A stretch of DNA of 64,000 nucleotides from Candidatus Zambryskibacteria bacterium RIFCSPLOWO2_01_FULL_39_39 (GTDB taxonomy: Bacteria > Patescibacteriota > Minisyncoccia > Phycocordibacterales > WO2-35-19). How positions within the stretch are numbered: position 1 is the stretch's first letter; the number at the start of each line of letters is the position of its first letter. The stretch spans positions 25,471-89,470 of the forward strand of contig MHWB01000011.1 of the NCBI GenBank assembly GCA_001823925.1, given 5' to 3'. Under the pieces are notes generated by a model. It worked only from the letters and a program-made list of their open reading frames with translations, was not told where the DNA came from and searched no databases. This document shows positions 7,011 through 46,830 of the stretch, in pieces. The translations under genes were made by a program, and so were the position numbers.

Positions 7011-7036
7011 TATCTTTAATTATAACACGAGTAGAT

Positions 7037-7615: not shown

Positions 7616-7626
7616 AAAATTAAGTT

Positions 7627-14426: not shown

Positions 14427-14437
14427 AATTTACATTA

Positions 14438-14469
14438 TACACTGTCTTTACGGTCGTAAGAAGAGTGTA
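14438..14469. repeat. 32-bp near-palindromic element (copy 2), 12 bp upstream of the PaaX-like gene start; includes a TGTATAAT -10-like motif on the minus strand
   Basis: Identical to 13817-13848. Confidence 0.8.
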
Positions 14470-14505
14470 ATCGAGGGGTATTGAAAATTATTAAGATTAT
14501 AAAAA

Positions 14506-29623: not shown

Positions 29624-29718
29624 CTACTGTGGTCACGGATAATTTCGTTCTCAGTCAAAACTAAATTTCCGCGATCCCACCTCACCCGTTTTGCTTGCTA
29701 ACAAAACATGGCTGTGGC

Positions 29719-31463: not shown

Positions 31464-33833
31464 TTATTTTAAATTACCCCAATTTTCCCCCACACTACTA
31501 TTTACAACAATGGGTACCCCCAGCGTCTCCTCCTTTGTTAATGCACTCTCCATAATTAATTTTATTTGGGGTACTACTTTTTCTAAAATATCGCTATCAA
31601 TTTCATAGACAATTTCATCGTGTATCTGAAGTATTAAATTTATTTTTTCTCCTAATTTTTCTTCCTCCAAATAATTATTAACGTCCCTCATAGCAATTTT
31701 TGTAAGATCTGCAGAGGTACCTTGTATGGGAGCGTTCACAGCCATTCTCTCCGCAGCCGCTCTGATAAAAGGTATTTTGGATTTTATACCTTCAAAGTAT
31801 CTGCGTCTACCAAAAAATGTTTTGGTATATCCCAGCCTGTTTGCATCAATTTTGGTCTGATCTAGATAATTAGAAAGTCCAGAAAAAGTTTCAAAATATT
31901 TATTATAAAATTCTTGAGCAGTCTTCCTGTCTGTCCCAAGGTTACCTTGCAGAGCGCTTACCCCCATTCCATAGAGTATGCCGAAGTTTATAACCTTGGC
32001 CCCCCTTCTCATCTCCTTACTCACCTCTTTTTCTTCTACCCCATAAACTTCTGCCGCAACAGCAGAGTGGACATCTTTGCCACTCTTAAATATTTCTATA
32101 AGTTTCTCATCTTTTGAAAGAAAGGCAGCGATACGAAGCTCCACTTGAGAGTAATCAAAAGCGACCAAGCTCTTGCCTTTGTCAGAGACAAAAGCATCTC
32201 TTATCAGCCGCCCCCTATCTGTGCCTATGGGAATATTTTGTAGGTTAGGATTTTGAGAAGCCATCCTGCCCGTAGTGCTTCCTGCCAAAACAAACCTTGC
32301 GTGTAGTTTATTATCTTTGTCCACTAAATTTTGTATTGGTTCTAGATAAGTTGAGAGAAGTTTAGAGAGCTCTCTGTATTCCAAAATAAGAGGGATGATA
32401 AGGTGAGTATCTTTTAGCTTTTCTAATTCAGACTCTCTGGTGGACCTTGCGCCTCCGGAAGTCTTTTTCAAATTCTTTACAAAAAGCCCCATCTTATCAA
32501 AAAGTATTTCACCAAGCTGTTTTGGAGAAGAAATATTGAATTCTACTCCAGCTTGCTTCCATATATTTTTTTCTATTTTTGAGAGTTCTTTTTTGTATTT
32601 ATCAGCAAGCTTCTTTATAAGTTCTATATCTACCAAGACACCATGCTTTTGCATTTTATTTACCACGGGGATCAAAGGCTTTTCTATTTTTTCAAATACA
32701 TCCTCACTCTCCCTCCTTTTCAATTCTTCAAATATAACCTTCTTTGCTTCTTTAAAATTTCTTGTATTTGCGAAGTTTAAAATATCTTCTAATTTAGGAT
32801 CTGTAATATTGGAATCTGCCACCCAAAGAGCTAGGGAGACTTCTTCTAGCTCTCTTTCGTCTATATTTTCTTCCTGTTTTTCTTCTACAATTTCTCTGCC
32901 ATTTTTCTTCAATACTTCCTGAAGTTTGCCCGACATAGTCCTAAACTGCAGTTCCCCAAAAAGCTTCTGCGCATTTTCTAAATTTATTCCCTCTTTCCAA
33001 CTCTTCTTCGGCATTTCAAAGTCTATAGGAGCATCCCTTCTTATTGTTGCAAGCATTTCGCTAAACCTTGCTTCTTCTTCACCTTCCTTGAGCAACTCCA
33101 CAATTCTTTTCTTTATACCTTTTTTTATAAAAACATCTTTGTTCTTTTTTAAAGTTTTGTATATCTCTTCAATACTTCCAAAATTTACAATTAGTTCTGT
33201 CGCCGACTTTTCTCCTATACCTTCTATGCCTATTATATTATCCGACGGATCGCCCCGAAGCCCTTTGAAACTTGGTAAAAGTTTTGGGAGGAAACTAAAC
33301 CTTTCCAAAACAGCCTTTTCATCATAAAGTATTGTGTCGTTCAAACCCTTTTTTAAGGTGTAGACCATTACCCTGTTATCATCAACAAGTTGCATGGTAT
33401 CCATGTCTCCCGAAGCAATTATTATTTCCAAGTCTTTTTTTAATTTTTCTTTAAGCTCTTCTACAATAGTGCCTAAAATATCGTCCGCTTCAAATCCGGG
33501 ATGAGAATATGTAGGAATACCCAAAGCGGTACAAACTTCTTTGGACTTTTCCATTTGAGAAACTAATTCCGGGTCAGACTTAGCTCTGCCGGCTTTGTAA
33601 TTCTCATAAACCTCATGCCTATAGGTAGGTTTGGGCAAATCATAACAAGCAATTATATAGTCTGGTTTTAGATCCGTTGCTATCTTAAGTATCATAGTCG
33701 CAAGACCATAGAGAGCCCCCGTAGGCTGGCCGCTACTGGTCGCAAAGTCAGGCAGGGCGTGGTATGCCCTATGCAATATTGCGTGTGCATCAAGCAATAC
33801 TAATCTTTCTTTGGTTTTCTCCGGTTTTGCCAT
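31464..33833 (-). CDS. polA: DNA polymerase I (5'-3' exonuclease plus polymerase domains)
   Basis: N-terminal 5'-nuclease motifs; pol motif RRGAKVINFGILYGMG. Confidence 0.9.
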   Translation of the reverse strand: MAKPEKTKERLVLLDAHAILHRAYHALPDFATSSGQPTGALYGLATMILKIATDLKPDYIIACYDLPKPTYRHEVYENYKAGRAKSDPELVSQMEKSKEVCTALGIPTYSHPGFEADDILGTIVEELKEKLKKDLEIIIASGDMDTMQLVDDNRVMVYTLKKGLNDTILYDEKAVLERFSFLPKLLPSFKGLRGDPSDNIIGIEGIGEKSATELIVNFGSIEEIYKTLKKNKDVFIKKGIKKRIVELLKEGEEEARFSEMLATIRRDAPIDFEMPKKSWKEGINLENAQKLFGELQFRTMSGKLQEVLKKNGREIVEEKQEENIDERELEEVSLALWVADSNITDPKLEDILNFANTRNFKEAKKVIFEELKRRESEDVFEKIEKPLIPVVNKMQKHGVLVDIELIKKLADKYKKELSKIEKNIWKQAGVEFNISSPKQLGEILFDKMGLFVKNLKKTSGGARSTRESELEKLKDTHLIIPLILEYRELSKLLSTYLEPIQNLVDKDNKLHARFVLAGSTTGRMASQNPNLQNIPIGTDRGRLIRDAFVSDKGKSLVAFDYSQVELRIAAFLSKDEKLIEIFKSGKDVHSAVAAEVYGVEEKEVSKEMRRGAKVINFGILYGMGVSALQGNLGTDRKTAQEFYNKYFETFSGLSNYLDQTKIDANRLGYTKTFFGRRRYFEGIKSKIPFIRAAAERMAVNAPIQGTSADLTKIAMRDVNNYLEEEKLGEKINLILQIHDEIVYEIDSDILEKVVPQIKLIMESALTKEETLGVPIVVNSSVGENWGNLK

Positions 33834-34284
33834 GCTCGAATTTTACCACAATATGTGGAGGCATTATACCGGCAATTTGCTCAGGCCATTCTACAAAAAC
33901 AAGGTTTTGGGGGTCAGAAATTATCTCCTGCCAGCCTAAATTTATCATCTCTTCTTCTTTTTCTATGCGGTAGGCGTCGATATGAATGAGATTCTCGACC
34001 TCACCCCCCAACCCCCTCCCCTTGACAAGGGGAGGGGGAGAAGAAAACGGAAGTTTTCTTGGGGGTGAGGTCTTATAAATTTTCATAATAACAAAAGTGG
34101 GGCTTTGGATTGTTTCTTTTACACCAAAACTCTCGGCCAAATATTTCATAAAAGTAGTCTTGCCACTCCCCAATTCTCCATATAACCCAACCACTAGCGC
34201 AGAATCGGTTTTAGGTTTTAATTTTTGGGAAAAGTCGGTCGCTATTTGAGCTGTTTCTGAAACGTTTTTAGATAAAAATTCCAT
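33790..34284 (-). CDS. tsaE: tRNA t6A biosynthesis protein TsaE (YjeE ATPase) carrying an in-frame GC-rich palindromic element
   Basis: LYGELGSGKTTF P-loop, SPTF, HIDAYR; extra SPPRKLPFSSPPPLVKGRGLGGEV segment. Confidence 0.8.
   Translation of the reverse strand: MEFLSKNVSETAQIATDFSQKLKPKTDSALVVGLYGELGSGKTTFMKYLAESFGVKETIQSPTFVIMKIYKTSPPRKLPFSSPPPLVKGRGLGGEVENLIHIDAYRIEKEEEMINLGWQEIISDPQNLVFVEWPEQIAGIMPPHIVVKFEHGKTGENQRKISIA
33997..34072. mobile_element. GC-rich TIR-bounded palindromic element (copy A), inside the tsaE coding sequence in frame
   Basis: TIR gacctcaccccc / gggggtgaggtc enclosing hairpins ccccctcccc-ttgacaa-ggggaggggg and agaaaac-gg-gttttct. Confidence 0.7.
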
Positions 34285-34327
34285 AAAATGATTTTAACAT
34301 ATAAAAAGGTGGGGATTTCTCCCCACT

Positions 34328-34801
34328 CTAATACACTCCGCGTGGTCCGCGGAGATAATCAATTTCCCAAAAGTCAGTTCGCCACTGACCATCGGTGTAG
34401 ATGTAGAAACTTCTTGATGCTGTGCCTGCATATTGGCCGGGCGTACAGCCAGCAGTCCTTGTATCAGACTCCGGTGGTGTCGACGGACAAATCCCTCGGA
34501 CAGTGATGACGACATCACGTCGCCCGAGAAAGTTGTAATACCCCCGAGAAACAGTGTTTCCCGACGGTAACACCACACCATGCCACTGTCCGTCCGGCCC
34601 CTTAATTGAAATTGGCTGTCCATTCTCAAAGACCTCCAGTGGCACGTTTGTGTTGTTGGTCAACACAACAGTCAAAATTGGCGGTGTTGCCAAAGAAGAC
34701 AACCTTCCCCAACCACCACCGCCACCTTGGGTCGTGGCACACCCGCCCGCCAAAACGGCGAGTAAGGTGGCCACAAAAGCCAACAAAATGTTCGTTTTCA
34801 T
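34328..34801 (-). CDS. Lipoprotein (signal peptide plus LAGGC lipobox); GC-rich compositional island
   Basis: MKTNILLAFVATLLAVLAGGCATT; GC content clearly above the flanks. Confidence 0.55.
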   Translation of the reverse strand: MKTNILLAFVATLLAVLAGGCATTQGGGGGWGRLSSLATPPILTVVLTNNTNVPLEVFENGQPISIKGPDGQWHGVVLPSGNTVSRGYYNFLGRRDVVITVRGICPSTPPESDTRTAGCTPGQYAGTASRSFYIYTDGQWRTDFWEIDYLRGPRGVY

Positions 34802-34938
34802 AGAACCAGTCTCCTACCCTCTATTATAGCATACTCTGTTTTAAAATGCAATAGCCATTTAAAATTTCAAAATGTAGCGATTAATCGCTACAAATTACAA
34901 CACACACCAAAGTGTCAAAGGGCGCCTTTGACACTTAT

Positions 34939-34977
34939 TCCCTCTCCTGCTTCTAGGATAGAGGTTGGGGGTGAGGT
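34939..34977. repeat. Half copy (copy E) of the GC-rich element: hairpin ccctctcc-tgcttcta-ggatagagg plus TIR gggggtgaggt
   Basis: Matches the 3' half of copy D. Confidence 0.5.
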
Positions 34978-34988
34978 ATAATAAACTC

Positions 34989-36668
34989 ATGACCATCAAA
35001 TTTAATGAGGACAAACAGCAACAGAAACTTGAGGAGCTCCGAGAGAGCGAAGAAGAAAGCTTGGCCCAAGTGATGTCCCAAAAATACGGACTACCCTATA
35101 TTGACCTTGGTGTTACCCCCATCAATATTGACGCACTGCGAGTAGTCAAGGAGCCAGAGGCTAGAGAAGCAGAGGTGGCTCCTTTTAATATCATTAATAA
35201 AAAGGTTTCGCTAGCCATTATTTCTCCAAATAATAACAAAACTGTCGCCTTGATTGATAATTTGAAGGATCGGGGCTATTTACCCTCTCTTTTTATGGTC
35301 TCTCATCAAAGCCTAGAGAAAATATGGGATCGCTATAAAGATTTATCCTATTCGATGGAGACAAAAGGTGGAGCGCTTGATATTGAAAACGAGGAAATCC
35401 AAGATTTAGTAAAAAAAGTAAAAAGTGGGGACGATATAAAAAATTCTATTGAAATAGTTTTGGCCCAAAAGAAAAGTTATCGTATCTCAAGAATATTAGA
35501 AATAATACTGGCCGGAGCCATTTCTATCAACGCTTCCGATATTCATCTTGAGCCGGAAGAGAACGCGGTGAGACTACGGTATCGACTGGATGGAGTTTTA
35601 AATGATATTTTAAATATTGACAAAGATACCTTTGGGCTTTTGCTCTCTCGTATAAAACTTATTTCCAATCTTAAATTAAATATTAAAGGTAAGGCGCAAG
35701 ATGGTCGCTTTAGTATAAAACTTGGTGATATAGAAATTGAAATCCGAACTTCCCTTTTACCGGGTGGCTACGGAGAATCAGTGGTTTTAAGAGTTTTAAA
35801 TCCAAACGCTATTTCCGTACCTTTGGAAGAACTCGGTATAAATGAAAAGCTGCTTGACATTATCCTCAAAGAGCTCCGGAAACCAAATGGTATGATTTTA
35901 AATACCGGTCCGACTGGTAGTGGTAAAACCACGACTCTTTATGCATTTTTAAAGAAAATCTATACCCCAGAAATAAAAATAATCACAATCGAGAACCCAA
36001 TTGAATATCACCTGAAAGGTATTGTACAAACTCAAGTGGAGGAAGAAAAGGGTTATACTTTTTTGGAGGGTTTGCGAAGCGCCTTGCGTCAAGATCCGGA
36101 TGTCATCATGGTTGGTGAAATCCGCGACGAAGAGACGGCCGAGATTGCCATAAATTCGGCTTTGACGGGACACCTTGTGTTCTCTACCTTGCACACCAAC
36201 AATGCGGCTGGCACCTTCCCTAGACTCATTGATTTGGGGGTTAATTCAAAAGTTATCACTTCCGCCATCAATATCGCTATGGCCCAAAGATTGTTGCGAA
36301 GACTTTGCAACAAATGTAAAAAGAAGGCCGAACTAGGAGAAAAAGAAAATGAGTTAATAAAAGTTATTACCAATGGTATTGTAGATAAAAAATATTTGGC
36401 TGGGCTAGATTTTAACAATATTTATGAAGCGGTGGGTTGTAAAGAGTGTAATTTCACTGGCTTTAAGGGTAGAACCGGTATTTATGAGGCTATCCTCACT
36501 GATGAAAAAATAGAATCTCTTGTTAAAGAAAATCCAAGCGAAAGAGAAATAAACAAAGCGAGCCAAGATCAAGGGATTTTAAATATGAAACAAGATGGGG
36601 TCATCAAAATACTTCAAGGCATCACTTCTGTGGATGAATTGAGGCGTGTGATTGATTTGGAGGAATAA
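34989..36668 (+). CDS. pilB: Type IV pilus assembly ATPase PilB (GspE family). The ORF track begins at 34965 inside the repeat; ATG 34989 is the more likely start.
   Basis: LNTGPTGSGKTTTLYAFL Walker A; GspE N-terminal domain; tetracysteine motif CNKC...CKEC. Confidence 0.85.
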   Translation: MTIKFNEDKQQQKLEELRESEEESLAQVMSQKYGLPYIDLGVTPINIDALRVVKEPEAREAEVAPFNIINKKVSLAIISPNNNKTVALIDNLKDRGYLPSLFMVSHQSLEKIWDRYKDLSYSMETKGGALDIENEEIQDLVKKVKSGDDIKNSIEIVLAQKKSYRISRILEIILAGAISINASDIHLEPEENAVRLRYRLDGVLNDILNIDKDTFGLLLSRIKLISNLKLNIKGKAQDGRFSIKLGDIEIEIRTSLLPGGYGESVVLRVLNPNAISVPLEELGINEKLLDIILKELRKPNGMILNTGPTGSGKTTTLYAFLKKIYTPEIKIITIENPIEYHLKGIVQTQVEEEKGYTFLEGLRSALRQDPDVIMVGEIRDEETAEIAINSALTGHLVFSTLHTNNAAGTFPRLIDLGVNSKVITSAINIAMAQRLLRRLCNKCKKKAELGEKENELIKVITNGIVDKKYLAGLDFNNIYEAVGCKECNFTGFKGRTGIYEAILTDEKIESLVKENPSEREINKASQDQGILNMKQDGVIKILQGITSVDELRRVIDLEE

Positions 36669-36950
36669 ATTTATTCTAAAATTAAAGTTATACACAAAAT
36701 AAATTGCTCGGAATTTGTTTTTGTGAATAATGGACTTAGAGAGATCCGAAAAATTAGGGATACAAATCTCTAAGCGGCACTTTCAATATTTAAACCGAAA
36801 GCAAAACATTATTCTGAGGAAAGAGCTAGTGGTCCCTCCCGAAAGATGGTACCGGCACTTCCTTGATTTAATGTCAAAATCCTATTGCTAGGACCGCCGC
36901 TTAGAGATTTATACCTCCAATTAAATTCAAATTCACCCAGAGTATATCAT

Positions 36951-37994
36951 ATGGCACAAAATATGTCAAGGAATAACAAGGAAAACAATACGGGGGGTGC
37001 AGAGGATAAGGATTTTGAATTTATTGATCAAACTTTGCGACCTTCTAAGTGGGACGAGTATATTGGTCAAGAAAACATCAAAAAAAATCTACAAATCCTT
37101 TTGGATGCCGCCAAGGAACGCAATCACCCACCAGAACATCTCTTATTTTACGGTCCACCCGGTCTTGGTAAAACCACTTTGGCCCATCTTATAGCCAAAG
37201 AAACCAGTAGTCAAATGCGTTCCACCTCCGGCCCAGCCATTGAAAAAGTTGGGGACTTAGCTTCTATACTTACTAATTTATCTCCTGGCGATATTCTGTT
37301 TATAGACGAGATTCACCGACTAAACAAATCTATTGAAGAGGTACTCTACCCCGCAATGGAATCAAGATCGTTAGATATTATTATTGGCAAAGGTCCTTCT
37401 GCCCGAACCATTCAACTTGAACTTCCCGCTTTTACTTTAATAGGAGCTACCACCAGGGTCGCTATGCTCTCTTCTCCTTTGCGTTCCAGATTCTCTGGTG
37501 GTGTTTTCCGACTTGAATTTTACAACCCAGATGAAATTATACAAATAATTAAACGTTCGGCAAATATTTTGGGGGTCTCCTTGTCTAGGGTGGCCGCAGA
37601 ATCTATCGCTGAAAGAAGTCGTTTTACACCAAGGACAGCCAACTATCTTTTAAAAAGAGCTAGAGACTATGCTCAGATCCAAAAAAGAGACATTGATGAG
37701 AGTATAGTTTCCGAAGCATTTAATCTTTTGGGTGTAGATACTGCTGGACTAAATGCCTCCGACCGATCACTTCTGTTAACCATAGCCAAAAAATTTGCCG
37801 GCGGACCGGTAGGACTTAACACTTTGGCCGCTTCCCTTTCCGAAGAAGAAGCAACCATTGAGGAATTTAACGAACCCTACCTTTTACAAATCGGGTTTGT
37901 GGAAAGAACTCCTCGCGGACGCACCCTCACCAAACATGCCTATAAACACTTGGGGTTAGATTTTCCAAAAGAAAAACAAGAAAAATTATTGTAA
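36951..37994 (+). CDS. ruvB: Holliday-junction helicase RuvB (the ORF track start 36885 is probably a spurious extension)
   Basis: LLFYGPPGLGKTTLAHLIAKE; sensor motifs. Confidence 0.9.
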   Translation: MAQNMSRNNKENNTGGAEDKDFEFIDQTLRPSKWDEYIGQENIKKNLQILLDAAKERNHPPEHLLFYGPPGLGKTTLAHLIAKETSSQMRSTSGPAIEKVGDLASILTNLSPGDILFIDEIHRLNKSIEEVLYPAMESRSLDIIIGKGPSARTIQLELPAFTLIGATTRVAMLSSPLRSRFSGGVFRLEFYNPDEIIQIIKRSANILGVSLSRVAAESIAERSRFTPRTANYLLKRARDYAQIQKRDIDESIVSEAFNLLGVDTAGLNASDRSLLLTIAKKFAGGPVGLNTLAASLSEEEATIEEFNEPYLLQIGFVERTPRGRTLTKHAYKHLGLDFPKEKQEKLL

Positions 37995-38068
37995 TTAAGG
38001 ATTAATTATTTTCCTCTGGTTTTAAGTACCAAACGAGAAGTGTTTAAAACTCAATCTATCTAAGCCTA

Positions 38069-38422
38069 TTAAACCAGATGACTCCTTATTTTATCTAAAA
38101 CCTTTTCTGTATCATTATCCACTTCGATATTTGGGATCCTTAAAATTTTATAACCAAGCTCTTTGAAAAATTTGTCTCTTACGGCATCATATTCTTTTGC
38201 TTCTCTTGTATTGTGAATTTTCCCATCAAGCTCAACGATTAATTTTCCCTTGGCACAATAAAAATCCAAAATATACCCACCTATACTATATTGTCTTTTA
38301 AACCTGAAACCAAGTTTTTTATTTCTTAACTCTTCCCACAATAAATTTTCTTTAGGGGTAGCATTTTGACGCAACTCTCTTCTTCTGTCTCCTAATTCTA
38401 ATATGTTGTGGATTAATTTCAT
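38069..38422 (-). CDS. DUF559 / Vsr-like endonuclease-domain protein (paralog 1)
   Basis: 117 aa; GGYILDFYC...VELDG..H motif; ~55% identical to the 43427-43783 product. Confidence 0.7.
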   Translation of the reverse strand: MKLIHNILELGDRRRELRQNATPKENLLWEELRNKKLGFRFKRQYSIGGYILDFYCAKGKLIVELDGKIHNTREAKEYDAVRDKFFKELGYKILRIPNIEVDNDTEKVLDKIRSHLV

Positions 38423-38424
38423 AA

Positions 38425-38518
38425 AAAGTCCTCACCCCTTATCCCCTCTCCTTGGCAAGGAGAGGGGGCGAGTAATCTTCTACATTATACTAAAATCTAG
38501 ATTGGGGTGAGGACTTTT
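38425..38518. mobile_element. GC-rich TIR-bounded palindromic element (copy B), complete, abutting the DUF559 start codon
   Basis: TIR aaagtcctcacccc / ggggtgaggacttt; inner hairpin cccctctcc-ttggcaa-ggagagggg. Confidence 0.7.
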
Positions 38519-38562
38519 TAAAATAGGTGTTTGAAAATTGAGATTAGTGATATATTACTCTT

Positions 38563-39099
38563 ATGTCAGGACATAATAAATGGTCAAAGATAAAAAATAA
38601 AAAAGCTGTTACAGATGCTCAAAAAAGTAAAATTTTTGGTAAACTGGTAAGGTTTATCAGTGTAGAATCTAAAAAAGCTAAAGGAGATGTAAACGCTCCC
38701 GGACTTAGGACGGCCATAGAAAAAGCCAAGGAAGCCAACGTGCCGAGCGACAACATTGAGAGAGCTATCAAAAAGGGGGTGGGTGGTGAAGGGGGAGAAA
38801 TGGAACAAATTGTTTATGAAAGCTACGGCCCCGGAGGCTCCGCTTTGATTATTGAGGCTTTGACAGAAAATAGAAACAGAGCTGCCCAAGAAATAAAACA
38901 CATTCTCTCAAAAAATGGATTTGAGCTGGCGGTACCCGGATCAGCCACATGGGCCTTTGAAAAACAAGTTGGAGGAAGTGGCTGGTTACCCAAAAACACC
39001 ACCCCTATATCCGAAGAAGACGGCACAAAACTTTCTAATTTAATAGAAGAACTTGAAGAAAATGATGAGGTCCAAGAAGTTTTTACAAATGCAGAATAA
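38563..39099 (+). CDS. yebC: YebC/PmpR family regulator (short form, 178 aa)
   Basis: MSGHNKWSKIKNKK N-terminus; GPGG motif; lacks ~60 aa relative to the E. coli YebC length. Confidence 0.75.
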   Translation: MSGHNKWSKIKNKKAVTDAQKSKIFGKLVRFISVESKKAKGDVNAPGLRTAIEKAKEANVPSDNIERAIKKGVGGEGGEMEQIVYESYGPGGSALIIEALTENRNRAAQEIKHILSKNGFELAVPGSATWAFEKQVGGSGWLPKNTTPISEEDGTKLSNLIEELEENDEVQEVFTNAE

Positions 39100-39586
39100 A
39101 AATATTATTCTTGGAATTGACCCTGGATACGGGAGAGTTGGTATTGCTATCATTGAAAAAACAAACAAGTGCGAGAGGTTAATCCATTCGGAATGTTTTG
39201 AAACTGATGTCAAATTACCTCATTTTAAAAGACTGCTTTTAATAGGAGAAAAAATTAAAGAAATAATAAAATATTATAAACCGTGGTGTGTGGCAGTTGA
39301 AACCCTACTTTGGAGCAAGAACAAAAAGACGGCCTTACAGGTGGCCGAAGCGCGCGGAGTGATATTGTTTGAAGTAGCCAGAGCTAATATTGTTTTAAGA
39401 GAATTTAATCCAAATCAAATTAAATTGGCGATAACTGGCTACGGCAAAAGTGATAAAAAACAAGTGATTAATATGGTAGAAAAACTAGTAAAGATAATCC
39501 CAAAAAAAAGACATGACGACGAGTATGACGCCATCGCGACCGCCCTCACTTGTGCCGCTATTTCATTATCCACAGATATACCTTAG
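39089..39586 (+). CDS. ruvC: Crossover-junction endodeoxyribonuclease RuvC
   Basis: ILGIDPGYGRVGIAI; conserved yebC-ruvC order; start overlaps the yebC stop. Confidence 0.85.
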   Translation: MQNKNIILGIDPGYGRVGIAIIEKTNKCERLIHSECFETDVKLPHFKRLLLIGEKIKEIIKYYKPWCVAVETLLWSKNKKTALQVAEARGVILFEVARANIVLREFNPNQIKLAITGYGKSDKKQVINMVEKLVKIIPKKRHDDEYDAIATALTCAAISLSTDIP

Positions 39587-39689
39587 GGTTATTGCAAAAT
39601 AATTTCAATATGATAAAAAGTATTAACTTAGCATTGCTTTTAGTATTAAAAATTTAAAGTTATGTTAAGAATTAAAAATAATTTAAAAC

Positions 39690-39818
39690 TATGGACGACG
39701 ATGATCGACAAATAGATCCAGTAGACGAAGTCGCCGATGAGGAAGCGGACGAGTTAGAAGAGGGGGCAACAAAAGGAATCCCAGCAGAAGACGAGGATGA
39801 TGTTGATGACGATATGTA
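39690..39818 (+). CDS. Putative 42-aa highly acidic peptide (MDDDDRQIDPVDEVADEEADELEEGATKGIPAEDEDDVDDDM)
   Basis: ORF followed 20 bp later by a strong intrinsic terminator; below the ORF-track size cutoff. Confidence 0.3.
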
Positions 39819-39838
39819 GTGATCTTTGGTCCAAATAA

Positions 39839-39874
39839 AAAACATCGCTACATTACTAGCGATGTTTTTTATTT
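39839..39874. terminator. Bidirectional intrinsic terminator aaaacatcgcta-cattac-tagcgatgtttt plus T-run
   Basis: 12-bp perfect stem with A/T runs on both sides. Confidence 0.7.
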
Positions 39875-39891
39875 TTAAAAAAATTTCAGTT

Positions 39892-41127
39892 TTAATTTGA
39901 TTTTATAATTACAAAAGTTTTCTTGCCTATTTTTATTTTTCTTTCTCCCCCCCCCACCACTTCATTGAAATCACTTATTTTTTTATCCGGCAAACTTGTT
40001 TGATCCGATACCGCGCCAGCCTCTATCAAGCGACGAAATTCTGATTTTGATTCTATAGTTTTATCGTTGACCAAAATGTCTATCATTTTTTCTGCTTTCG
40101 ATGCATTTATCACCCGAGCATCTTCCGGAAATTCGCCCTTACCAAAGGTACTCTCAAAATTTTCCCCTGCTCTTTCAGCTTCTTTTTCTCCGTGGTACAT
40201 CTTTACTATTTCTTTGGCTAATTTCATTTTTATATCTTTGGGATTAAGGCCACCAGCAAGCTTTTTTGACATCTCTTTTATATCATCCAGAGAAACATCG
40301 GTAATCATCTCAAAACCACTAATTATAAGGTCATCGTTCCAACTCATTACTTTACCAAACATATCTTCGGGGGTTTGATCTAAGGAAACCATATTACCTT
40401 CGGTCTTACCCATTTTGCTACCACTAGAATCAATTAAAAGTTTGGTGGTCAAAACAAATTTTTCTTTGTTTTTTAAAGTCTTCATCAAATCTCTTCCAAC
40501 AAGCATATTAAAGGTTTGATCGTTACCGCCCACCTCACCATCCACATCCATAGCCACACTGTCATAACCCTGCATAAGCGGGTACATTAATTCATGAATG
40601 TAAACAGATTTTTCATCTTGTTCCCTGCGACGGAACATTTCTCTTTTCATCATTTGCTCCACCGTTGCTTGTGAGGCCAACTCTAAAACATCAAAAAGGG
40701 TCATCTTGCCAAACCACTCTGAATTGTATTTAATTGTGGCAGGATTAGTCCCACCAAAATCAATAAACTTTGAGGCCTGCTTCTTGTATTCCTTGAGATT
40801 ATTTAAAATCTCATTATGGGTCAGTTTTTTGCGAACTGCCGTTTTATCCGTAGGATCGCCAATCATAGCAGTAAAATCGCCCATAAGTAGTATAATTTGA
40901 TGACCAAGTTTTTGGAATTCTCCTAATTTTTTAAGTGGAATAACGTGGCCCAAGTGTAGGGTTTCGCCGGTTGGATCGATACCTAAATACAAAGAGAGTC
41001 TTTCTCCTTTTATTAATCTCGCTTTTAGAAAATTAAAATTGGGAAATATATTTTCTACCCCCCTCTTTAAAAGTTCATCTACTTTTTCTTCGTCAACTAT
41101 TACTTTTGATTTAGTAAGCCCAAACAT
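39892..41127 (-). CDS. tyrS: Tyrosyl-tRNA synthetase
   Basis: HIGH motif (LHLGH); KMGKTEG (KMSKS); C-terminal S4-like domain. Confidence 0.9.
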   Translation of the reverse strand: MFGLTKSKVIVDEEKVDELLKRGVENIFPNFNFLKARLIKGERLSLYLGIDPTGETLHLGHVIPLKKLGEFQKLGHQIILLMGDFTAMIGDPTDKTAVRKKLTHNEILNNLKEYKKQASKFIDFGGTNPATIKYNSEWFGKMTLFDVLELASQATVEQMMKREMFRRREQDEKSVYIHELMYPLMQGYDSVAMDVDGEVGGNDQTFNMLVGRDLMKTLKNKEKFVLTTKLLIDSSGSKMGKTEGNMVSLDQTPEDMFGKVMSWNDDLIISGFEMITDVSLDDIKEMSKKLAGGLNPKDIKMKLAKEIVKMYHGEKEAERAGENFESTFGKGEFPEDARVINASKAEKMIDILVNDKTIESKSEFRRLIEAGAVSDQTSLPDKKISDFNEVVGGGERKIKIGKKTFVIIKSN

Positions 41128-41182
41128 GTTAAAACATTACCATAATTTCGTTTTTTGGCATAATCTGGCATAATGTACAAGA

Positions 41183-43336
41183 ATGATTGGGGAATTTATA
41201 AAAAAACACAAACAAATTATAAAAACACTACTAACACTGTCACTATCAGCTTTTTTGGTGTTGGGAGCTATAACTATTTTTTGGATAAGTTCCTTTAAGG
41301 TGCCGACGTCCGAATCAATAAGAGAAAGGAGGATAATCGAATCAACAAAAATATACGACCGGACCGGAAAAGTACTTTTGTACGACACGGGTGATAATGT
41401 CAGAAGAAGCATTGTATCTATCGAAGAAATATCAAGAAATATAAAGAATGCCACTATCGCCATAGAGGATAGAGAATTTTATGGCCACTCCGGAGTTAAG
41501 CCAACCGCTTTTATAAGAGCCACCTTGGTAAACATCTTGTCTTTAAATTTTTCTCAGGGTGGTTCTACCATTACCCAACAAGTAGTTAAAAACTCTCTAC
41601 TTACTTCCGAAAAACTTATTTCAAGAAAATTAAAAGAGTGGGTGCTCGCTATCAAATTGGAGCAGGTGGCAACTAAAGACGAGATCCTTTCAATGTATCT
41701 AAATGAAATACCCTATGGTGGTGTTATTTATGGAGTGGAAGAAGCGAGTGGAGCCTTCTTTAATAAAAAATCCAAAGATGTAAGTTTAGCCGAGGCGGCA
41801 TATTTGGCGGCACTACCGAAAGCGCCGACATTTTATTCTCCGTATGGTAAAAACAAAGAAAAACTGGAGGAGAGGAAAAATTTGGTTTTAAGAGAGATGC
41901 TTCGCAACAACTTTATTACAGAGGAAGAATATAATCAGGGCATAAAAGAAGAAGTTTCTTTTACAGTTAAGGGTGATTCTAGTATCAAAGCCCCTCATTT
42001 TGTTTTTTATGTAATCGAATATCTTAAAAAAAAATATGGTGATGAAATTATAAACAGTGGAGGTTTGCGGGTCACAACTTCTTTAAATTATGACCTGCAA
42101 TCAATTGGTGAAAAGATAGCTTATGATTATGCTCTAGAAAATAAGAAGAAGTTTAACGCAGAAAACATTTCTATTGTAGCCACAGACCCAAAAACCGGAG
42201 AAATACTGACCATGGTTGGGTCAAGGAATTATTTTGATAAAGAAATTGATGGGGCTTTTAATGTAAGTTTGGCTAAAAGACAGCCCGGATCTACCATCAA
42301 ACCTTTTGTTTACGCTGAAGCCTTTTATAAAGGCTTCAGCCCAGAAACGGTTGTCTTTGATTTAAAGACTCAATTTTCAACTATGTGTGCCCCAAACAAT
42401 TTAACAATGGACAACGGGTGTTATGCACCAGACAACTATGACAATGTTTTTAGGGGACCAATTACACTAAGAAATGCTTTGGCTCAATCTATCAACGTAC
42501 CTTCGGTAAAAGTTTTATATTTAGCCGGCCTAAGTGAATCTATACGATTGGCAAGAGATATGGGTATAGAATCTTTGAGTAATAAGGGAGATTATGGACT
42601 CACTTTGGTTTTGGGGGGTGGCGAGGTCACTCCACTTGAACTAACAGCAGGCTACGGAGTTTTTGCAAATAACGGTATAAAAACAAATATTACCCCCGTT
42701 ATTGAAATAAAAAATAAAAACGGAGAAATTTTAGAAAAGCATGATCCCAAACCAATTCAGGTCTTAGATAAAGAAATTGCTTTAAAAATATCAAGCATTC
42801 TTTCTGACAACGAAGCTCGAGCACCGTCATTTGGTCAAACTTCAGCTTTGTATTTTTCAAACAGAGATGTGGCTGTAAAAACGGGTACCACCAACAACTA
42901 CAAAGATGCTTGGATAATGGGTTATACTCCAAATATAGCGGTGGGTAGTTGGGCTGGCAATAACGACAACACCCCAATGGAGAAAAAAGTGGCTGGTTTT
43001 ATTGTAGCTCCGGTTTGGAGAGCTTTTATGGATCAAGCTTTGGCCAAGATACCAGACGAACAATTTGAGGAACCTTTAGTTGGAGATAAATCTAAAACAA
43101 AGCCAGTTTTACAAGGTATTTGGCAAGGGGGCATCTTGGCCACTTCAACATCTGGAGTGTCGACTGTTTCGGGGGGTGTCCACTCTATCTTAAATTGGGT
43201 AAACAAAGACGACCCTAATGGATCTTACCCAGAAAATCCATCTGTAGACCCTCAATTTGAACGCTGGGAATACGGCGTCCGCATCTGGGCACAAGATCAT
43301 GGCCTTTCTAACGATTTACCGTTTACATTAGATTAA
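41183..43336 (+). CDS. Class A penicillin-binding protein (glycosyltransferase plus transpeptidase)
   Basis: GT51 motifs (ATIAIEDREFYGHSG); transpeptidase STIKP; KTGTT. Confidence 0.85.
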   Translation: MIGEFIKKHKQIIKTLLTLSLSAFLVLGAITIFWISSFKVPTSESIRERRIIESTKIYDRTGKVLLYDTGDNVRRSIVSIEEISRNIKNATIAIEDREFYGHSGVKPTAFIRATLVNILSLNFSQGGSTITQQVVKNSLLTSEKLISRKLKEWVLAIKLEQVATKDEILSMYLNEIPYGGVIYGVEEASGAFFNKKSKDVSLAEAAYLAALPKAPTFYSPYGKNKEKLEERKNLVLREMLRNNFITEEEYNQGIKEEVSFTVKGDSSIKAPHFVFYVIEYLKKKYGDEIINSGGLRVTTSLNYDLQSIGEKIAYDYALENKKKFNAENISIVATDPKTGEILTMVGSRNYFDKEIDGAFNVSLAKRQPGSTIKPFVYAEAFYKGFSPETVVFDLKTQFSTMCAPNNLTMDNGCYAPDNYDNVFRGPITLRNALAQSINVPSVKVLYLAGLSESIRLARDMGIESLSNKGDYGLTLVLGGGEVTPLELTAGYGVFANNGIKTNITPVIEIKNKNGEILEKHDPKPIQVLDKEIALKISSILSDNEARAPSFGQTSALYFSNRDVAVKTGTTNNYKDAWIMGYTPNIAVGSWAGNNDNTPMEKKVAGFIVAPVWRAFMDQALAKIPDEQFEEPLVGDKSKTKPVLQGIWQGGILATSTSGVSTVSGGVHSILNWVNKDDPNGSYPENPSVDPQFERWEYGVRIWAQDHGLSNDLPFTLD

Positions 43337-43351
43337 ATTTTTACCGCTACA

Positions 43352-43887
43352 AACCTCACCCCATCCGACTTGCGTCGGATTGCCCCTCTCCTAGAAGCAG
43401 GAGAGGGGGAAGAAAAAAGATAAAAAATGAAATGGATACATAATAATCAAAGTCTTCGTGACAGAAGAAAAGAATTAAGAAAAAATTCTACTAGATCGGA
43501 ACAAGATCTGTGGTTTGAATTAAGAAATAGTAAATCGGGGGTCAAGTTTAAAAGACAACATAGTGTTGGTGGATATATCGCTGATTTTTATTGTCAGAAG
43601 CACAATCTTATTATTGAAGTGGATGGAGAAATTCATAATTCAAAAGAGGCTCAAGAATATGATATGGTTAGAGATAAATATTTTACAGAACTTGGATATA
43701 GAGTGCTTAGAATACACAATAACGAAGTAGACAAAGATATAGAAAAGGTTTTAGATAAAATTAAAAGTTATTTTGTTAATTAAGATGGGTTATGTCAACT
43801 TAATTGGGTAATTAAGTTTTTTCTTTATTTCTCCCCTCTCCTGCTTCTAGGAGAGGGGCAGATCCCGAAAGGGATCGGGGTGAGGTT
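43352..43887. mobile_element. Composite GC-rich TIR element containing a DUF559 endonuclease gene: 11-bp perfect TIR aacctcacccc / ggggtgaggtt with paired internal hairpins flanking the gene
   Basis: Left end 43352-43410 (TIR plus hairpins atccgac..gtcggat and cccctctcc..ggagagggg); right end 43831-43887 (cccctctcc..ggagagggg, gatccc..gggatc, TIR). Confidence 0.5.
43427..43783 (+). CDS. DUF559 / Vsr-like endonuclease-domain protein (paralog 2)
   Basis: 118 aa; GGYIADFYC...IEVDGEIH motif. Confidence 0.7.
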   Translation: MKWIHNNQSLRDRRKELRKNSTRSEQDLWFELRNSKSGVKFKRQHSVGGYIADFYCQKHNLIIEVDGEIHNSKEAQEYDMVRDKYFTELGYRVLRIHNNEVDKDIEKVLDKIKSYFVN

Positions 43888-44134
43888 AGATAATCTTCAA
43901 AAAGATTTTTGAAGATTTTAGCGAGTTTTCAATTTGAGATTGGTGCATAAAAATTTCGTTTCTGAAGACGGGGTTGCAATTTATTTTTAAATTGTCTCCT
44001 TTTATTTCTAACATTTCTTTGGAAAGTTCTATATCTGTTTCTTTTTTTATTGTCTCTAAAATTACAGACAATTTTGTATTATTATCCCTTTCAAGATTTA
44101 AAAATTTATGAAGAAACCCTGATATGTTGTACAT
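43886..44134 (-). CDS. DUF721/DciA-like small protein downstream of dnaN
   Basis: 82 aa; position after dnaN; weak similarity to the DUF721 pattern. Confidence 0.3.
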   Translation of the reverse strand: MYNISGFLHKFLNLERDNNTKLSVILETIKKETDIELSKEMLEIKGDNLKINCNPVFRNEIFMHQSQIENSLKSSKIFLKII

Positions 44135-44146
44135 ATTATAAGATCT

Positions 44147-45268
44147 TTATCTATTCATTGGCATCACAATATAAAGAAAGCTTTTGTCTGTCGCACCACT
44201 AATGGCTAATGGTTTGCCCATGCCACCAAAATTTAGGACTAAACTGTCAGAAGGAATGGATTGTATGCAATCTATTATGTATTTACTGTTAAAATTTAAT
44301 TCAATATCGTCCCCAGAAACTAGAGCATTTATAGACTCTTTAGATTCACCTATATCATTGTTTTTTGACTCTATATTTAATAGTTTATTTTTAATATCCA
44401 CTTTTAATTTAACTTGGTTTAAAGAGTCTGAAAAAATATTTGATGTTTTTATTGAATTTATAAGGTCATTTTTTAAAATTGTTATAGTAGTACCAAACGT
44501 TTTTGGTATTATTTGTTTGTAATCTGGAAAAGACCCATCTATAAGCCTTGAGACCACATACATATCTGGAGCAATAAAAGCCGCTTGGTTTCTATCAAAA
44601 ATAATACTTATATCTCCATTAAAATCATCAAATAGTTTTATAATTTCTGAAACATTTTTATAAGGGATGAGGGTTTGAGGAAAATCAACAATATTTTTGA
44701 TGTTAACTTTTTTCTCTGCCAAACGAAATGAGTCAGTGGAAACAAAAACCAAACCACCATCTTCTTTAAACACATATACACTTGATAGTTCTGGTTTAAT
44801 GCTTGAGTTTGAGGCGCTGTACCAAACAGATTTAAATCCAGAAATAAGATCATGACAATTTATTTTTATTAGCTTTTCGTCCTCATTTATTGATGAGTTT
44901 GGCACAAGTTTTGGAATACTTGGGAAATCTTCGTATGGTAAACATTTAATAACTACTGAATTTTTATTTGATGATATTTTAAGATTATTATCTTTGGTTT
45001 CAAAAGTTAATCTTTCATCTTTAATTGAAGATAATACACCTAATAAAATGTTTGCTGGAACAGCTAAACACCCTTTTTCTATTGTTTTAATTTTTGTTTC
45101 TATTTCTACACCAATATCTAAATTTGTAGATTTTACTATTAATTTATTATCACTTAAAACATCAAAATAAACACAAGAAAGAACTGGTAATGTTAAGTGT
45201 TTGTTAGCTAATTTGGATGTTTTTTGGATAACAACTTCTATTTTTGATTTATCACACTCTATTTTCAT
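44147..45268 (-). CDS. dnaN: DNA polymerase III beta sliding clamp
   Basis: 373 aa; three-domain clamp pattern; follows dnaA. Confidence 0.85.
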   Translation of the reverse strand: MKIECDKSKIEVVIQKTSKLANKHLTLPVLSCVYFDVLSDNKLIVKSTNLDIGVEIETKIKTIEKGCLAVPANILLGVLSSIKDERLTFETKDNNLKISSNKNSVVIKCLPYEDFPSIPKLVPNSSINEDEKLIKINCHDLISGFKSVWYSASNSSIKPELSSVYVFKEDGGLVFVSTDSFRLAEKKVNIKNIVDFPQTLIPYKNVSEIIKLFDDFNGDISIIFDRNQAAFIAPDMYVVSRLIDGSFPDYKQIIPKTFGTTITILKNDLINSIKTSNIFSDSLNQVKLKVDIKNKLLNIESKNNDIGESKESINALVSGDDIELNFNSKYIIDCIQSIPSDSLVLNFGGMGKPLAISGATDKSFLYIVMPMNR

Positions 45269-45477
45269 TTTAGTTTTCTTATTAAATTATTATTTTTTAA
45301 CTCCTATATATCTGTGGATATGTGGATGAATTTTTAAATCTTTATTTTTTAACATACTATTGATTTTTAAATTTAAAAATTATGTTTATAATTTGATTGT
45401 TACTGATTTATTTTTTTAAATCTTTATTTTTTAAAAACAACTACTACACATATTATAAACATCTTATAAACACATAA
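45269..45477. promoter_or_regulatory. Putative oriC region between dnaA and dnaN: AT-rich, with tandem DnaA-box-like motifs TGTGGATA / TGTGGATGA at 45313-45329
   Basis: Matches the reverse complement of the TTATCCACA consensus; AT-rich unwinding-like stretch. Confidence 0.45.
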
Positions 45478-46830
45478 TTAACCTATAATAGAACGTATTT
45501 CTTGTATTTCTTTTAACAATAAAGTATCACTTCTGATTTCATTTTTTATCTTTTCATAAGAATGGATAACAGTAGTGTGATCTCGACCACCCAACTTTTC
45601 CCCAATAGAAGGATAAGAAATACTAAAATCTTCTCTCAAAATATACATTATTATTTGTCTTGGTTTAATTACCTCCTTTTTTCTTGTTTTTTCATAAATA
45701 GTTTCTTCTTCTATTTTATAAAAATCAGAAATTATTTTAACAACCTCCTTATATGACATTAACTTCTTTTGTTTGATACTATTTTTTACCAAATCCTTAA
45801 CCTCATTTAAGGTTAAAATTTTATTTTTGGTTTCTGTTTGGCAGACAATTAAATTTATAACACCCTCCAAGTCCCTAATGTTACCCTTTATAGAATCAGC
45901 CAAATAATCCATAACAACCTCGTCTATAAAAAGGTTTATACTGGAACATTTGGATTTTATAATAGCTAGTCTTGACTCATGATCTGGGGCTGGGATATCA
46001 ATAACCATGCCAGCGGCAAACCTGGACTTTAAACGATCCTCAAGACCAGTCACAAAATTTGGGTGTTTATCGCAAGAGAAAACAATATGCTTATTTTCGT
46101 CTTTCATAGAGTTGAAGATATGGAACAACTCTTCTTGAGTTTTTTCTTTACCTGAAAGGAATTGGATATCATCCATTATTAGCATGTCATATTTCCTATA
46201 CTTTTCTTTAAATTGGTTTACTTTGTTTGCCTGAACGGAAGATACGTAGTCGTTAAAGAATTTTTCGGAAGTGAAGTAGTAAATCTTTTTTGATGGGTCT
46301 ATTGCTTTTACGGCGTTGCCCATTGCTTGGATTAAATGTGTTTTGCCGTGGCCGGTATTTCCAAAAATAAAATATGGGTTGTAGGTTATCCCAAGATTTT
46401 TTATTACCGCTTGAGCTGCGGCGTATGCTAGCTCGTTAAACGGACCAACAACAAACGATTCAAAAGTATATCTCGGGTTTAGATTATCATCTTTGTTTAT
46501 GTAGTATTCAGACAGAGGCAACTCTTTTGTTGGGGAGGAGGTTTTTGTTGGTATGTATTGGTTTTTAGCCTTACTCTCCTCTTTGATGACATACTCAAGG
46601 GTGTGGATTGATTCGGAGGATTGTCTTAAAAGTTTTAAGACAAGATTATGAAATTTCTTCATAAGCCACTCTTGGACAAAGGTGTTGGGCACGCTTAAAT
46701 AAATTATTCCATTTTCAAAGCCAGATATCTTAGTTTCCTTAAACCATGTCGCAAAATTTGCTTTGGAGACAGATATTTCTATCTCCAACAAAACATTGTT
46801 CCAGAGTTCTTTAGTATCCATGCAAACCAT
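45478..46830 (-). CDS. dnaA: Chromosomal replication initiator DnaA
   Basis: GNTGHGKTHL Walker A; C-terminal DNA-binding domain. Confidence 0.9.
   Translation of the reverse strand: MVCMDTKELWNNVLLEIEISVSKANFATWFKETKISGFENGIIYLSVPNTFVQEWLMKKFHNLVLKLLRQSSESIHTLEYVIKEESKAKNQYIPTKTSSPTKELPLSEYYINKDDNLNPRYTFESFVVGPFNELAYAAAQAVIKNLGITYNPYFIFGNTGHGKTHLIQAMGNAVKAIDPSKKIYYFTSEKFFNDYVSSVQANKVNQFKEKYRKYDMLIMDDIQFLSGKEKTQEELFHIFNSMKDENKHIVFSCDKHPNFVTGLEDRLKSRFAAGMVIDIPAPDHESRLAIIKSKCSSINLFIDEVVMDYLADSIKGNIRDLEGVINLIVCQTETKNKILTLNEVKDLVKNSIKQKKLMSYKEVVKIISDFYKIEEETIYEKTRKKEVIKPRQIIMYILREDFSISYPSIGEKLGGRDHTTVIHSYEKIKNEIRSDTLLLKEIQEIRSIIG

Follow-up and report, generated by a model that had tools for sequence, protein, structure and literature searches.

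In this study, we analysed a 64,000-nucleotide stretch (the window) of the genome of Candidatus Zambryskibacteria bacterium RIFCSPLOWO2_01_FULL_39_39 (contig MHWB01000011.1, positions 25,471 to 89,470), a member of the Candidate Phyla Radiation (CPR; Patescibacteria). The window, with a GC content of about 37%, carries two DUF559 genes (PF04480) and a family of short GC-rich palindromic repeats. Few uncharacterised nuclease families are as widespread as DUF559, of which E. coli YcjD is a member; the family belongs to the Vsr / PD-(D/E)XK clade and is related to the EDxHD homing endonucleases. The repeats are assembled from four units, which we refer to as C3 (a CCTCACCCC-type 9-mer), G3 (a GGGGTGAGG-type 9-mer), H1 (a hairpin with the arms CCCCTCTCC and GGAGAGGGG) and h2 (a second hairpin).

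The initial annotation of this DNA had described five repeat copies, A to E, with inverted termini and inner CCCCTCTCC/GGAGAGGGG hairpins. All five were found where it had placed them, and they form a true repeat family. They amount to four elements (A, B, E and the C+D pair), all within 33.9-43.9 kb. The exact sequence CCTCACCCC occurs eight times on both strands versus 0.27 expected, a number reached in none of 100 shuffles, and CCCCTCTCC at up to one mismatch was found 22 times versus 7.7 ± 2.9. Seven of the eight exact 9-mers fall in copies A to E; the remaining one, at 20878, lacks a hairpin and was taken as a chance occurrence. A further solo terminal repeat had been claimed beside tRNA-Lys at 29666-29680, but the sequence there is CCTCACCCG at 29680-29688, which has one mismatch and no hairpin and is of a kind expected about 6.8 times by chance.

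Copies C and D had been regarded as left and right halves, but they are instead the inverted ends of one 532-bp unit around DUF559 gene 1 (cassette 1). Copy C, the left end (43354..43408, plus strand), consists of CCTCACCCC (43354-43362), h2 (atccgac-ttgc-gtcggat) and H1 (CCCCTCTCC-tagaagca-GGAGAGGGG, 43383-43408). The gene itself (43427..43783, plus strand) encodes a Vsr-like PD-(D/E)XK nuclease of 118 aa (PF04480, E 1.6e-33; PDB 3HRL, E 2.7e-14). Copy D, the right end (43833..43885, plus strand), carries the units in the order H1 (43833-43858), h2 (gatccc-gaaa-gggatc) and GGGGTGAGG (43877-43885), and it adjoins the stop codon of a convergent 82-aa open reading frame (ORF). Copy B, a complete short element (38423..38519), adjoins DUF559 gene 2 (38069..38422, minus strand; 117 aa; PF04480, E 2.7e-34), whose start is 7 nt from the GGGGTGAGG of copy B in the minus-strand reading. 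A perfect 16-bp terminal inverted repeat, AAAAAGTCCTCACCCC, bounds copy B, with the inverted repeat spanning 38423-38519; inside it lie C3 (38430-38438), H1 (38443-38467) and G3 (38504-38512), and an AT-rich spacer of 36 nt takes the place of h2.

The other two elements have no DUF559 gene of their own. Copy A (33997..34072), also a complete short element, consists of C3 (33999-34007), H1 (CCCCCTCCCC/GGGGAGGGGG, 34012-34038), h2 (34041-34060) and G3 (34062-34070), and it lies within tsaE (33790..34284, minus strand; PF02367, E 3.4e-30, in two stretches). Copy E (34939..34976, plus strand) is a solo degenerate triplex-motif unit, CCCTCTCC-tgcttcta-GGATAGAGG-ttg-GGGGTGAGG, with a degenerate H1 at 34940-34964 and G3 at 34968-34976; it ends 11 nt upstream of the ATG (34988) of a gene for a T2SSE/PilB-like ATPase (MTIKF...).

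The proteins of the two DUF559 genes are 65% identical to each other. E64, D66 and H70 (E-x-D-x3-H) are invariant in 20 CPR relatives, the first two of these residues also across phyla. The sole solved structure matched by sequence was the uncharacterised 3HRL, while other profile libraries returned the YcjD model together with weak matches to a "homing endonuclease" (PADLOC, E 3e-7) and to a methyl-directed restriction enzyme.

A pan-bacterial repeat family beside DUF559 genes

One genome per bacterial species was scanned with the pattern CCTCACCCC-N0-30-CCCCTCTCC-N5-10-GGAGAGGGG (27 specified bases). The pattern was present in at least 120 stretches across most bacterial phyla, the matches listed including Pseudomonas, Xanthomonas, cyanobacteria, Chloroflexota, Planctomycetota, Bacteroidota, Acidobacteriota, CPR and others. 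By their sequence, the window palindromes are members of the pan-bacterial repeat family already described as E. coli BoxC, PIT or "TM" (triplex motif) repeats. The motif is thus specific neither to this genome nor to its lineage.

BoxC repeats date from the 1990s and were named PIT elements by Maher's group in 2000 (PMC4666352). The TMECO units of E. coli, e.g., CCCTCTCCC-TTGA-GGGAGAGGG-TTA-GGGTGAGGG, consist of a hairpin and, after it, a G-rich block in mirror order to the purine arm, and formation of a very stable purine-motif triplex by such a single strand has been shown in vitro (Holder et al. 2015, PMC4666352). The same authors reported the motif in more than 260 genomes, tied it to local genome instability, and found no common function among the flanking genes and never a mobility gene nearby (PMC4666352). 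Promoter or terminator activity of the motif was not seen in earlier work (PMC4666352), and our own scan for sigma-70 promoters and intrinsic terminators placed nothing on the elements of the window.

The window copies have the features of this design. The G/C-rich hairpin with a pyrimidine and a purine arm (about 8-10 bp) was found in A, B, C and D and, in degenerate form, in E. On the minus strand of copy B, GGAGAGGGG-ataa-GGGGTGAGG, mirror compatibility of the third strand, counting the triples G.G-C, A.A-T and T.A-T, holds at 9/9 positions, and E and A are similar. Copies C and D also obey the mirror rule, with a hairpin-containing spacer of 18-20 nt that makes them a variant of the 1-6 nt rule. 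The 9-mer, previously taken for a plain terminal repeat, is hence the mirror-repeat third strand of the motif; it covaries with the hairpin arm (see below) and is present on both strands of complete elements.

To our knowledge, the BoxC/PIT/TM repeats have so far been given neither a function nor an origin nor a mobility enzyme. Their association with DUF559 was established from two sets of loci. In the motif-anchored set (the 120 listed stretches, about 0.8 Mb, searched by tblastn for DUF559), DUF559 was present in 5 of the 120 loci among the matches listed, always at 0-111 bp from the motif and in 4 of these 5 with the motif on both sides; tblastn gave no further DUF559 match in the rest of the roughly 0.8 Mb. 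The protein-anchored set comprised 80 metagenome loci with a CPR-type DUF559, taken from a CPR-only alignment. H1 was found within 200 bp upstream of the gene in 51 of these loci, within 200 bp downstream in 24 and on either side in 56, counts that are not independent because the CPR loci are mutually related. The upstream H1 ends 13-35 nt before the gene, and the upstream CCTCACCCC is at -50 to -90. H1 density was 2.61/kb near DUF559 versus 0.12/kb elsewhere in the loci, a 22-fold difference. A Pfam survey of the ORFs beside motifs in 58 genome loci returned diverse housekeeping families only, with crude ORF picking having under-sampled DUF559.

The architecture extends to Proteobacteria, Bacteroidota, Planctomycetes and cyanobacteria, and it is also seen beside E. 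coli ycjD. Three more non-CPR DUF559 loci were chosen among the hits of the protein search, namely a trpB-trpA spacer, a 53%-GC contig and a Synechocystis plasmid, and C3-H1 was upstream of the gene in all three. H1-(h2)-G3 was found in the downstream spacer of the first two as well; on the plasmid, a downstream H1-G3 can be read only from a GEGPGVR peptide encoded at the 3' end of the ORF. Non-CPR DUF559 ORFs have motif-encoded peptides at their termini. In E. coli K-12, TMECO #9 is located 167 bp past the stop codon of ycjD, and a partial hairpin lies over the stop codon; other E. coli YcjD variants have a motif-encoded terminus, ...SPSPQPSPQRGEGA.

Several further observations were made at these loci. 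The ycjD start is surrounded by a perfect 15-bp inverted repeat containing CCTCA/TGAGG. In the fabI-ycjD spacer (E. coli K-12 1351040-1351406; L121), an exact 23-nt copy of the ycjD 3' coding region adjoins TMECO #9, and this copy resembles what is left of a second DUF559 3' end. In L210 (1944-2489), a genome of 40% GC, a DUF559 cassette takes up precisely the interval from the trpB stop to the trpA start, and its right end carries the covarying variant GGAGAAGG / GGATGAGG.

DUF559 has come up in another context. Among predicted targets of programmed inversion, "DUF559 domain-containing protein" was enriched with an odds ratio of 14.3 and "endonuclease domain-containing protein" with one of 9.6 (Milman et al., PMC9881135). 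Flanking inverted triplex-motif units may be the cause of this enrichment. Our literature search, with subscription journals mostly outside its coverage, found no paper tying DUF559 to BoxC/PIT/TM repeats.

Whole units, in-frame inserts and covarying ends

Many seemingly "distant" hairpins, 350-850 bp downstream of DUF559 in the CPR loci, are the right ends of longer units with the order [C3-h2-H1] - DUF559 - one variable ORF - [H1-h2-G3]. The variable cargo ORFs are found on either strand and, judged by eye, are HTH-, nucleotidyltransferase-, TIM-barrel- or ParB-like. The terminal inverted repeats consist of the 9-bp core plus 2-7 further bases outward of it, which vary between elements and are complementary between the two ends of one element (mean complementary run 1.82 versus 0.62 ± 0.08 for shuffled partners). 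In their layout, short elements such as A and B correspond to what loss of the interior would leave. The longer elements with matching ends encode DUF559, not a known transposase, and no transposase with matching ends was found in the window or in about 200 related loci.

Two other kinds of cassette were considered and rejected. An integron attC cassette does not fit, as the copies are dispersed and none has an integrase nearby; inteins were rejected as an explanation of the in-frame cassettes (described below) because the junction translations, inspected by eye, contain no splice-junction residues and the boundaries are DNA repeats.

The check for insertion polymorphism recommended in the initial annotation was informative, as presence and absence differ at orthologous sites in the three syntenic relatives compared (L203, L205 and L207). 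In L205, the stop codons of the PBP gene and of the 82-aa ORF are 2 nt apart and the ruvB-yebC spacer is just 10 nt, with the motif absent from both. L207 is likewise empty at both sites, the PBP and 82-aa genes being 2 nt apart or overlapping in L205 and L207. At the PBP site, the insert in the window corresponds to the whole end-to-end unit plus 17 nt. Because the empty site in L205 and L207 holds no motif, both ends of cassette 1 came together with the gene; and because the insert is the whole unit plus 17 nt, simple homing of the gene into a pre-existing repeat is disfavoured. At ruvB-yebC, L203 has a different, divergent DUF559 cassette in the opposite orientation. The spacer orthologous to that of copy E is without the unit in L203 and L207 and carries a different degenerate unit in L205. 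A contig with a 99%-identical DUF559 (P0001) proved to be the same genome (99.97%, gapless) and showed no strain polymorphism.

Copy A is inserted in frame in tsaE, the product of which is 100% identical to a Candidatus Zambryskibacteria protein. The product thereby gains about 25 aa (SPPRKLPFSSPPPLVKGRGLGGEV), which divide the Pfam match into two stretches. Orthologs of 143-147 aa are without the insert, which is found at the same position in several of those of 157-184 aa; one ortholog holds only "TSPPEV", which resembles a footprint. In L203, the 76-bp element has one difference (98.7% identical), with the flanking tsaE sequence about 82% identical, and in L207 the insert shows paired A-T to G-C changes in h2. 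In L205 (about 10210-10240), only a hairpin, GAAAATTTTTCATTTTC, is left at the place of copy A's h2 in a 147-aa TsaE. On this sequence, the L205 gene is a decayed insert rather than a virgin site, with the 143-aa orthologs representing the true empty state. From these comparisons, the tsaE insertion is old; it has stayed in frame and is either constrained or corrected at the nucleotide level. The initial annotation had named conserved genes in relatives as the finding that would speak against a mobile repeat. Copy A indeed sits in tsaE of several relatives, but it is still an insertion when compared to the 143-aa orthologs.

In-frame tolerance is not confined to short elements. In metG of L006 (1774-4485), a whole TM-DUF559-TM unit is in frame within a 903-aa MetRS, between the anticodon-binding and tRNA_bind domains, and in L075 (2013-5573) a whole repeat-DUF559-repeat unit is in frame in a Type ISP restriction-modification enzyme, with a further repeat-encoded peptide, LLPSGEGQGMRD, downstream in the same gene. 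Four free-standing DUF559 proteins of 116 aa (P0052, P0079, P0081 and P0103) are called "leucyl-tRNA synthetase" by one source, and this name was probably transferred from synthetase genes with an in-frame DUF559, like the metG of L006.

The ends were folded as single-stranded DNA hairpins only and compared with shuffled sequences. Copies A and B form an outer stem and two inner hairpins (-35 and about -28 kcal/mol), with z scores of -8.3 for A and of -7.7 and -8.7 for the two strands of B. Copies C and D form two hairpins each with GGGGTGAGG left free at the 3' side (z -4.8 for C, minus strand, and -3.6 for D), and the degenerate copy E folds no better than shuffles (z -0.25). Over 45 distinct h2-type units, compensatory double changes were observed at 6/6 pairs of h2, in 15-21 sequences each. 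Paired cells reached 93.3% versus 74.8% in shuffles, and the covariation score was 0.555 versus 0.243 for shuffled sequences (0/500 as high), with slid controls at or below 0.158.

Covariation between the purine arm of H1 and its mirror was computed over 350 units. In the CPR set, an A at position 6 of the purine arm goes with an A at third-strand position 4 in 14 of 15 units and with the triplex-compatible T in the other, while arm G goes with third-strand G in 95/99. Triplex compatibility was 8.16 versus 7.61 ± 0.05 for shuffled partners in the CPR set and 8.51 versus 8.31 ± 0.013 in the genome set; relatedness of the copies inflates these mirror figures, yet the double change recurs on several arm backgrounds and in distant phyla. 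The variant GGAGAAGGG/GGGATGAGG is predicted to be triplex-compatible, and GGTGAGGGG with GGGGTGGGG is a covarying class that is not a canonical triple. As no copying mechanism makes mirror repeats, this covariation points to selection for a triple-stranded fold or for a protein reading it. On the G-rich strand, the h2 loops of both ends frequently read GNRA or GAA (including GCGAAGC) and in no case the complements of these. Because the G-rich strands of the two ends are opposite DNA strands, this loop symmetry fits folded single-stranded DNA at the 3' side of each end better than one transcript.

The surroundings of the elements may also be mentioned. All copies are at most about 12 kb away from dnaN/dnaA (44147-46830; window 33900-46830), and the 44-46 kb stretch, with a GC content of only 26%, is probably the origin side. 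In E. coli K-12 the motif clusters near the origin too (Holder et al., PMC4666352). A 157-aa lipoprotein-like ORF (MKTNILLAFVATLLAVLAGGCATTQ..., 34328-34801, minus strand) has no Pfam match, and its surroundings are unusually GC-rich, with several long overlapping ORFs on both strands. L203 carries two reverse-transcriptase + bAvd pairs (6923-8329 and 13935-15317), resembling diversity-generating retroelements, which adjoin the genes for the T2SSE ATPase and for polA; at these positions the window is without such pairs.

Origin of the cassettes and comparison with known systems

The repeat family itself is already known, and by sequence it is here met in another lineage; what goes beyond the descriptions that we found in the literature is the ends with h2, the cassettes around DUF559, the in-frame inserts and the evidence from covariation. 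The explanation that we favour, and consider rather probable, is that the units are BoxC/PIT/TM ends of small selfish DUF559 cassettes and their miniatures, mobilised by the DUF559 nuclease. Each unit comprises the G/C-rich H1 and a G-rich 9-mer mirroring its purine arm, so that the G-rich single strand can fold as an intrastrand triplex. Here and widely in other genomes, a cassette has the form [CCTCACCCC-h2-H1] - DUF559 gene - optional cargo gene - [H1-h2-GGGGTGAGG], with the units as terminal inverted repeats. The data show the membership in the repeat family, the association with DUF559, the architecture of the cassettes, the presence/absence polymorphism of whole units and the covariation in their ends, while the action of the nuclease on these ends is inferred. 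On this model: C and D with the gene at 43427-43783 would be an intact cassette; B with the gene at 38069-38422 would be one whose distal end was lost or never there; and A and E would be gene-less miniature derivatives, A being tolerated in frame in tsaE. The Vsr-like nuclease might recognise and nick the folded G-rich strand at the 3' side of each end, which, by analogy with RAYT and REP, might allow excision or copying and insertion without target duplication, and non-autonomous copies could be mobilised in trans.

Several points weigh against this explanation. DUF559 is a neighbour in only about 4% of the motif-anchored loci (among the matches listed), and the relatedness of the CPR loci lessens the weight of their counts. 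The check for target-site duplications suggested in the initial annotation found no consistent or fixed direct repeat in 93 paired elements. DUF559 gene 2 has no distal end, and in a minority of loci (L168, which has the architecture of copy B, and L075) the flanking units are direct rather than inverted. The tsaE insert persists in different species, with stronger conservation than the surrounding gene, and its retention could reflect selection at the level of the host instead of selfishness. Binding or cutting of the motifs by DUF559 is a candidate role, suggested by analogy. In addition, triplex formation in vivo was not detected by Holder et al., and earlier work on PIT elements saw no in-vivo effect (PMC4666352).

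An unlikely alternative would be that DUF559 is a free-standing homing endonuclease and the motifs are its cleavage or landing sites and the homology for the double-strand-break repair by which the gene would spread, not transposable ends. The Vsr/EDxHD clade does include a proven homing endonuclease, I-Bth0305I, and the weak PADLOC match, the constant distance of 13-35 nt between gene and H1, the abundance of solo motifs as possible landing pads and the lack of target duplications would all agree with homing. However, the motif-free empty site of cassette 1 in L205 and L207 implies that the ends came with the gene, H1 is whole on both sides of the gene rather than split, and the ends of long cassettes have flanking bases that vary and are yet complementary. 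It is improbable that the motifs are structural or regulatory DNA or RNA signals serving the host (a ribosome-binding site, an mRNA stabiliser, a replication or recombination pause, or a protein-binding site), with DUF559 being just one of many genes bracketed or regulated by them. In copy B and L168, the distance from GGGGTGAGG to the ATG is 6-7 nt, a Shine-Dalgarno-like spacing; the neighbours of most copies are ordinary housekeeping genes, conservation of the tsaE insert exceeds that of tsaE itself, and a link to local genome instability has been reported (Holder et al., PMC4666352). Against this, close relatives differ in presence or absence at orthologous sites, and the two ends are symmetric on opposite strands; neither our scan nor earlier work found promoter or terminator features at them, and the enrichment beside a single nuclease family is too strong for chance.

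It is quite improbable that H1, h2 and the tail form a small structured non-coding RNA of the Whalefall-1 type. At gathering thresholds, Rfam returned only tRNAs in the window; in a permissive search, copy D gave a full-length Whalefall-1 (RF01762) match of 25.3 bits and copy B one of 18.4 bits, both below the gathering score of 37, and 13 related loci gave no match at E ≤ 0.01. Whalefall-1 has been rated as certainly RNA (Weinberg et al. 2010), and the strong covariation of h2 would suit an RNA. Against this, the two ends show selection for this fold on opposite strands, RNA is stated not to form purine-motif triplexes (Holder et al., PMC4666352), and copies are found in frame within coding sequence. 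Only a very slight chance is left for a lineage-specific miniature inverted-repeat transposable element (MITE) of a conventional, DDE-type transposon. The elements are small, multi-copy, bounded by terminal inverted repeats and polymorphic in their insertion, all of which would be in keeping with it, but there is neither target-site duplication nor a transposase with matching ends, and the family spans nearly all bacterial phyla. For these reasons the MITE part of the earlier label, which had placed the copies among REP, MITE or Rickettsia palindromic elements (RPE), did not hold up, while the idea of miniature elements did, since the short copies look like derivatives of a longer coding element and copy A is an RPE-like in-frame copy.

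If the mobile DUF559 cassette is the correct explanation, the link between BoxC and DUF559 hands each of them a testable role in a model organism and gives the repeats a candidate enzyme partner. The covariation would then be evolutionary evidence for the in-vivo importance of a purine-motif DNA triplex, the "PSPxGRGxGGEG / GEGxGVR" peptides and the nuclease domains in aminoacyl-tRNA synthetase and methyltransferase entries would be explained, and the flagging of DUF559 as a predicted inversion target would possibly be so too. A broader proposal can be put forward only tentatively: BoxC/PIT/triplex repeats and YcjD-type DUF559 might together constitute an unrecognised pan-bacterial class of mobile elements, with a Vsr-like PD-(D/E)XK enzyme, folded single-stranded DNA ends (hairpin, hairpin and triplex-forming tail), no target duplication and in-frame insertion in essential genes, in which case YcjD would be the missing BoxC enzyme and Whalefall-1 an element end.

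Among the closest known systems is BoxC/PIT/TM. The layout (pyrimidine arm, loop, purine arm, short spacer and G-rich mirror 9-mer) is common to both, the sequences are near-identical when CCCCTCTCC..GGAGAGGGG ataa GGGGTGAGG of the window is compared by eye with Table 1 of PMC4666352, and both are multi-copy, frequently in inverted pairs and locally unstable. Unlike E. coli BoxC/TM, the window and other CPR genomes often have a covarying h2 of 16-20 nt between H1 and the third strand. The window and CPR units, moreover, form both ends of gene-carrying cassettes, and one window copy is within coding sequence, whereas Holder et al. (PMC4666352) gave neither an associated mobility gene nor a common flanking gene. 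The consensus of Whalefall-1 (a CUCUCC hairpin, ACAGA, a second hairpin with a CUUG loop, and UCAGGGUGAGGAC) has the module order of the cassette right end, but it is on record as a non-coding RNA that stands alone, known from one metagenome source, whale falls only, and without a gene association (Weinberg et al. 2010). Judging from these sequences, the cassette right end appears to be a close relative of Whalefall-1 in design and not a member.

RPE are inserted in frame in genes and translated as an extra peptide loop, as copy A is in tsaE; by their description they are set apart, being confined to Rickettsia, with no known nuclease partner and no triplex-type mirror segment. I-Bth0305I has the superfamily and the type of catalytic motif in common with DUF559, and EDxHD homing endonucleases, like DUF559 cassettes, are selfish genes with presence/absence polymorphism. 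However, I-Bth0305I is inside a group I intron and has an extra DNA-binding region, whereas the DUF559 protein here is free-standing, of about 117 aa, bounded by structured inverted repeats and sometimes inserted in frame without an intron or intein. A parallel in organisation is REP/REPIN with RAYT (TnpA-REP). These are scattered, multi-copy short palindromes like the window repeats; in both systems inverted units bracket a nuclease gene of low copy number, solo units are numerous at other places, and recognition of single-stranded hairpins is plausible. The differences are that the flanked gene encodes a Vsr-like PD-(D/E)XK protein (PF04480 DUF559) instead of an HUH/Y1 (IS200/IS605-like) transposase, and that the DUF559 cassettes have a triplex-type mirror segment, cargo genes and a sequence conserved across phyla.

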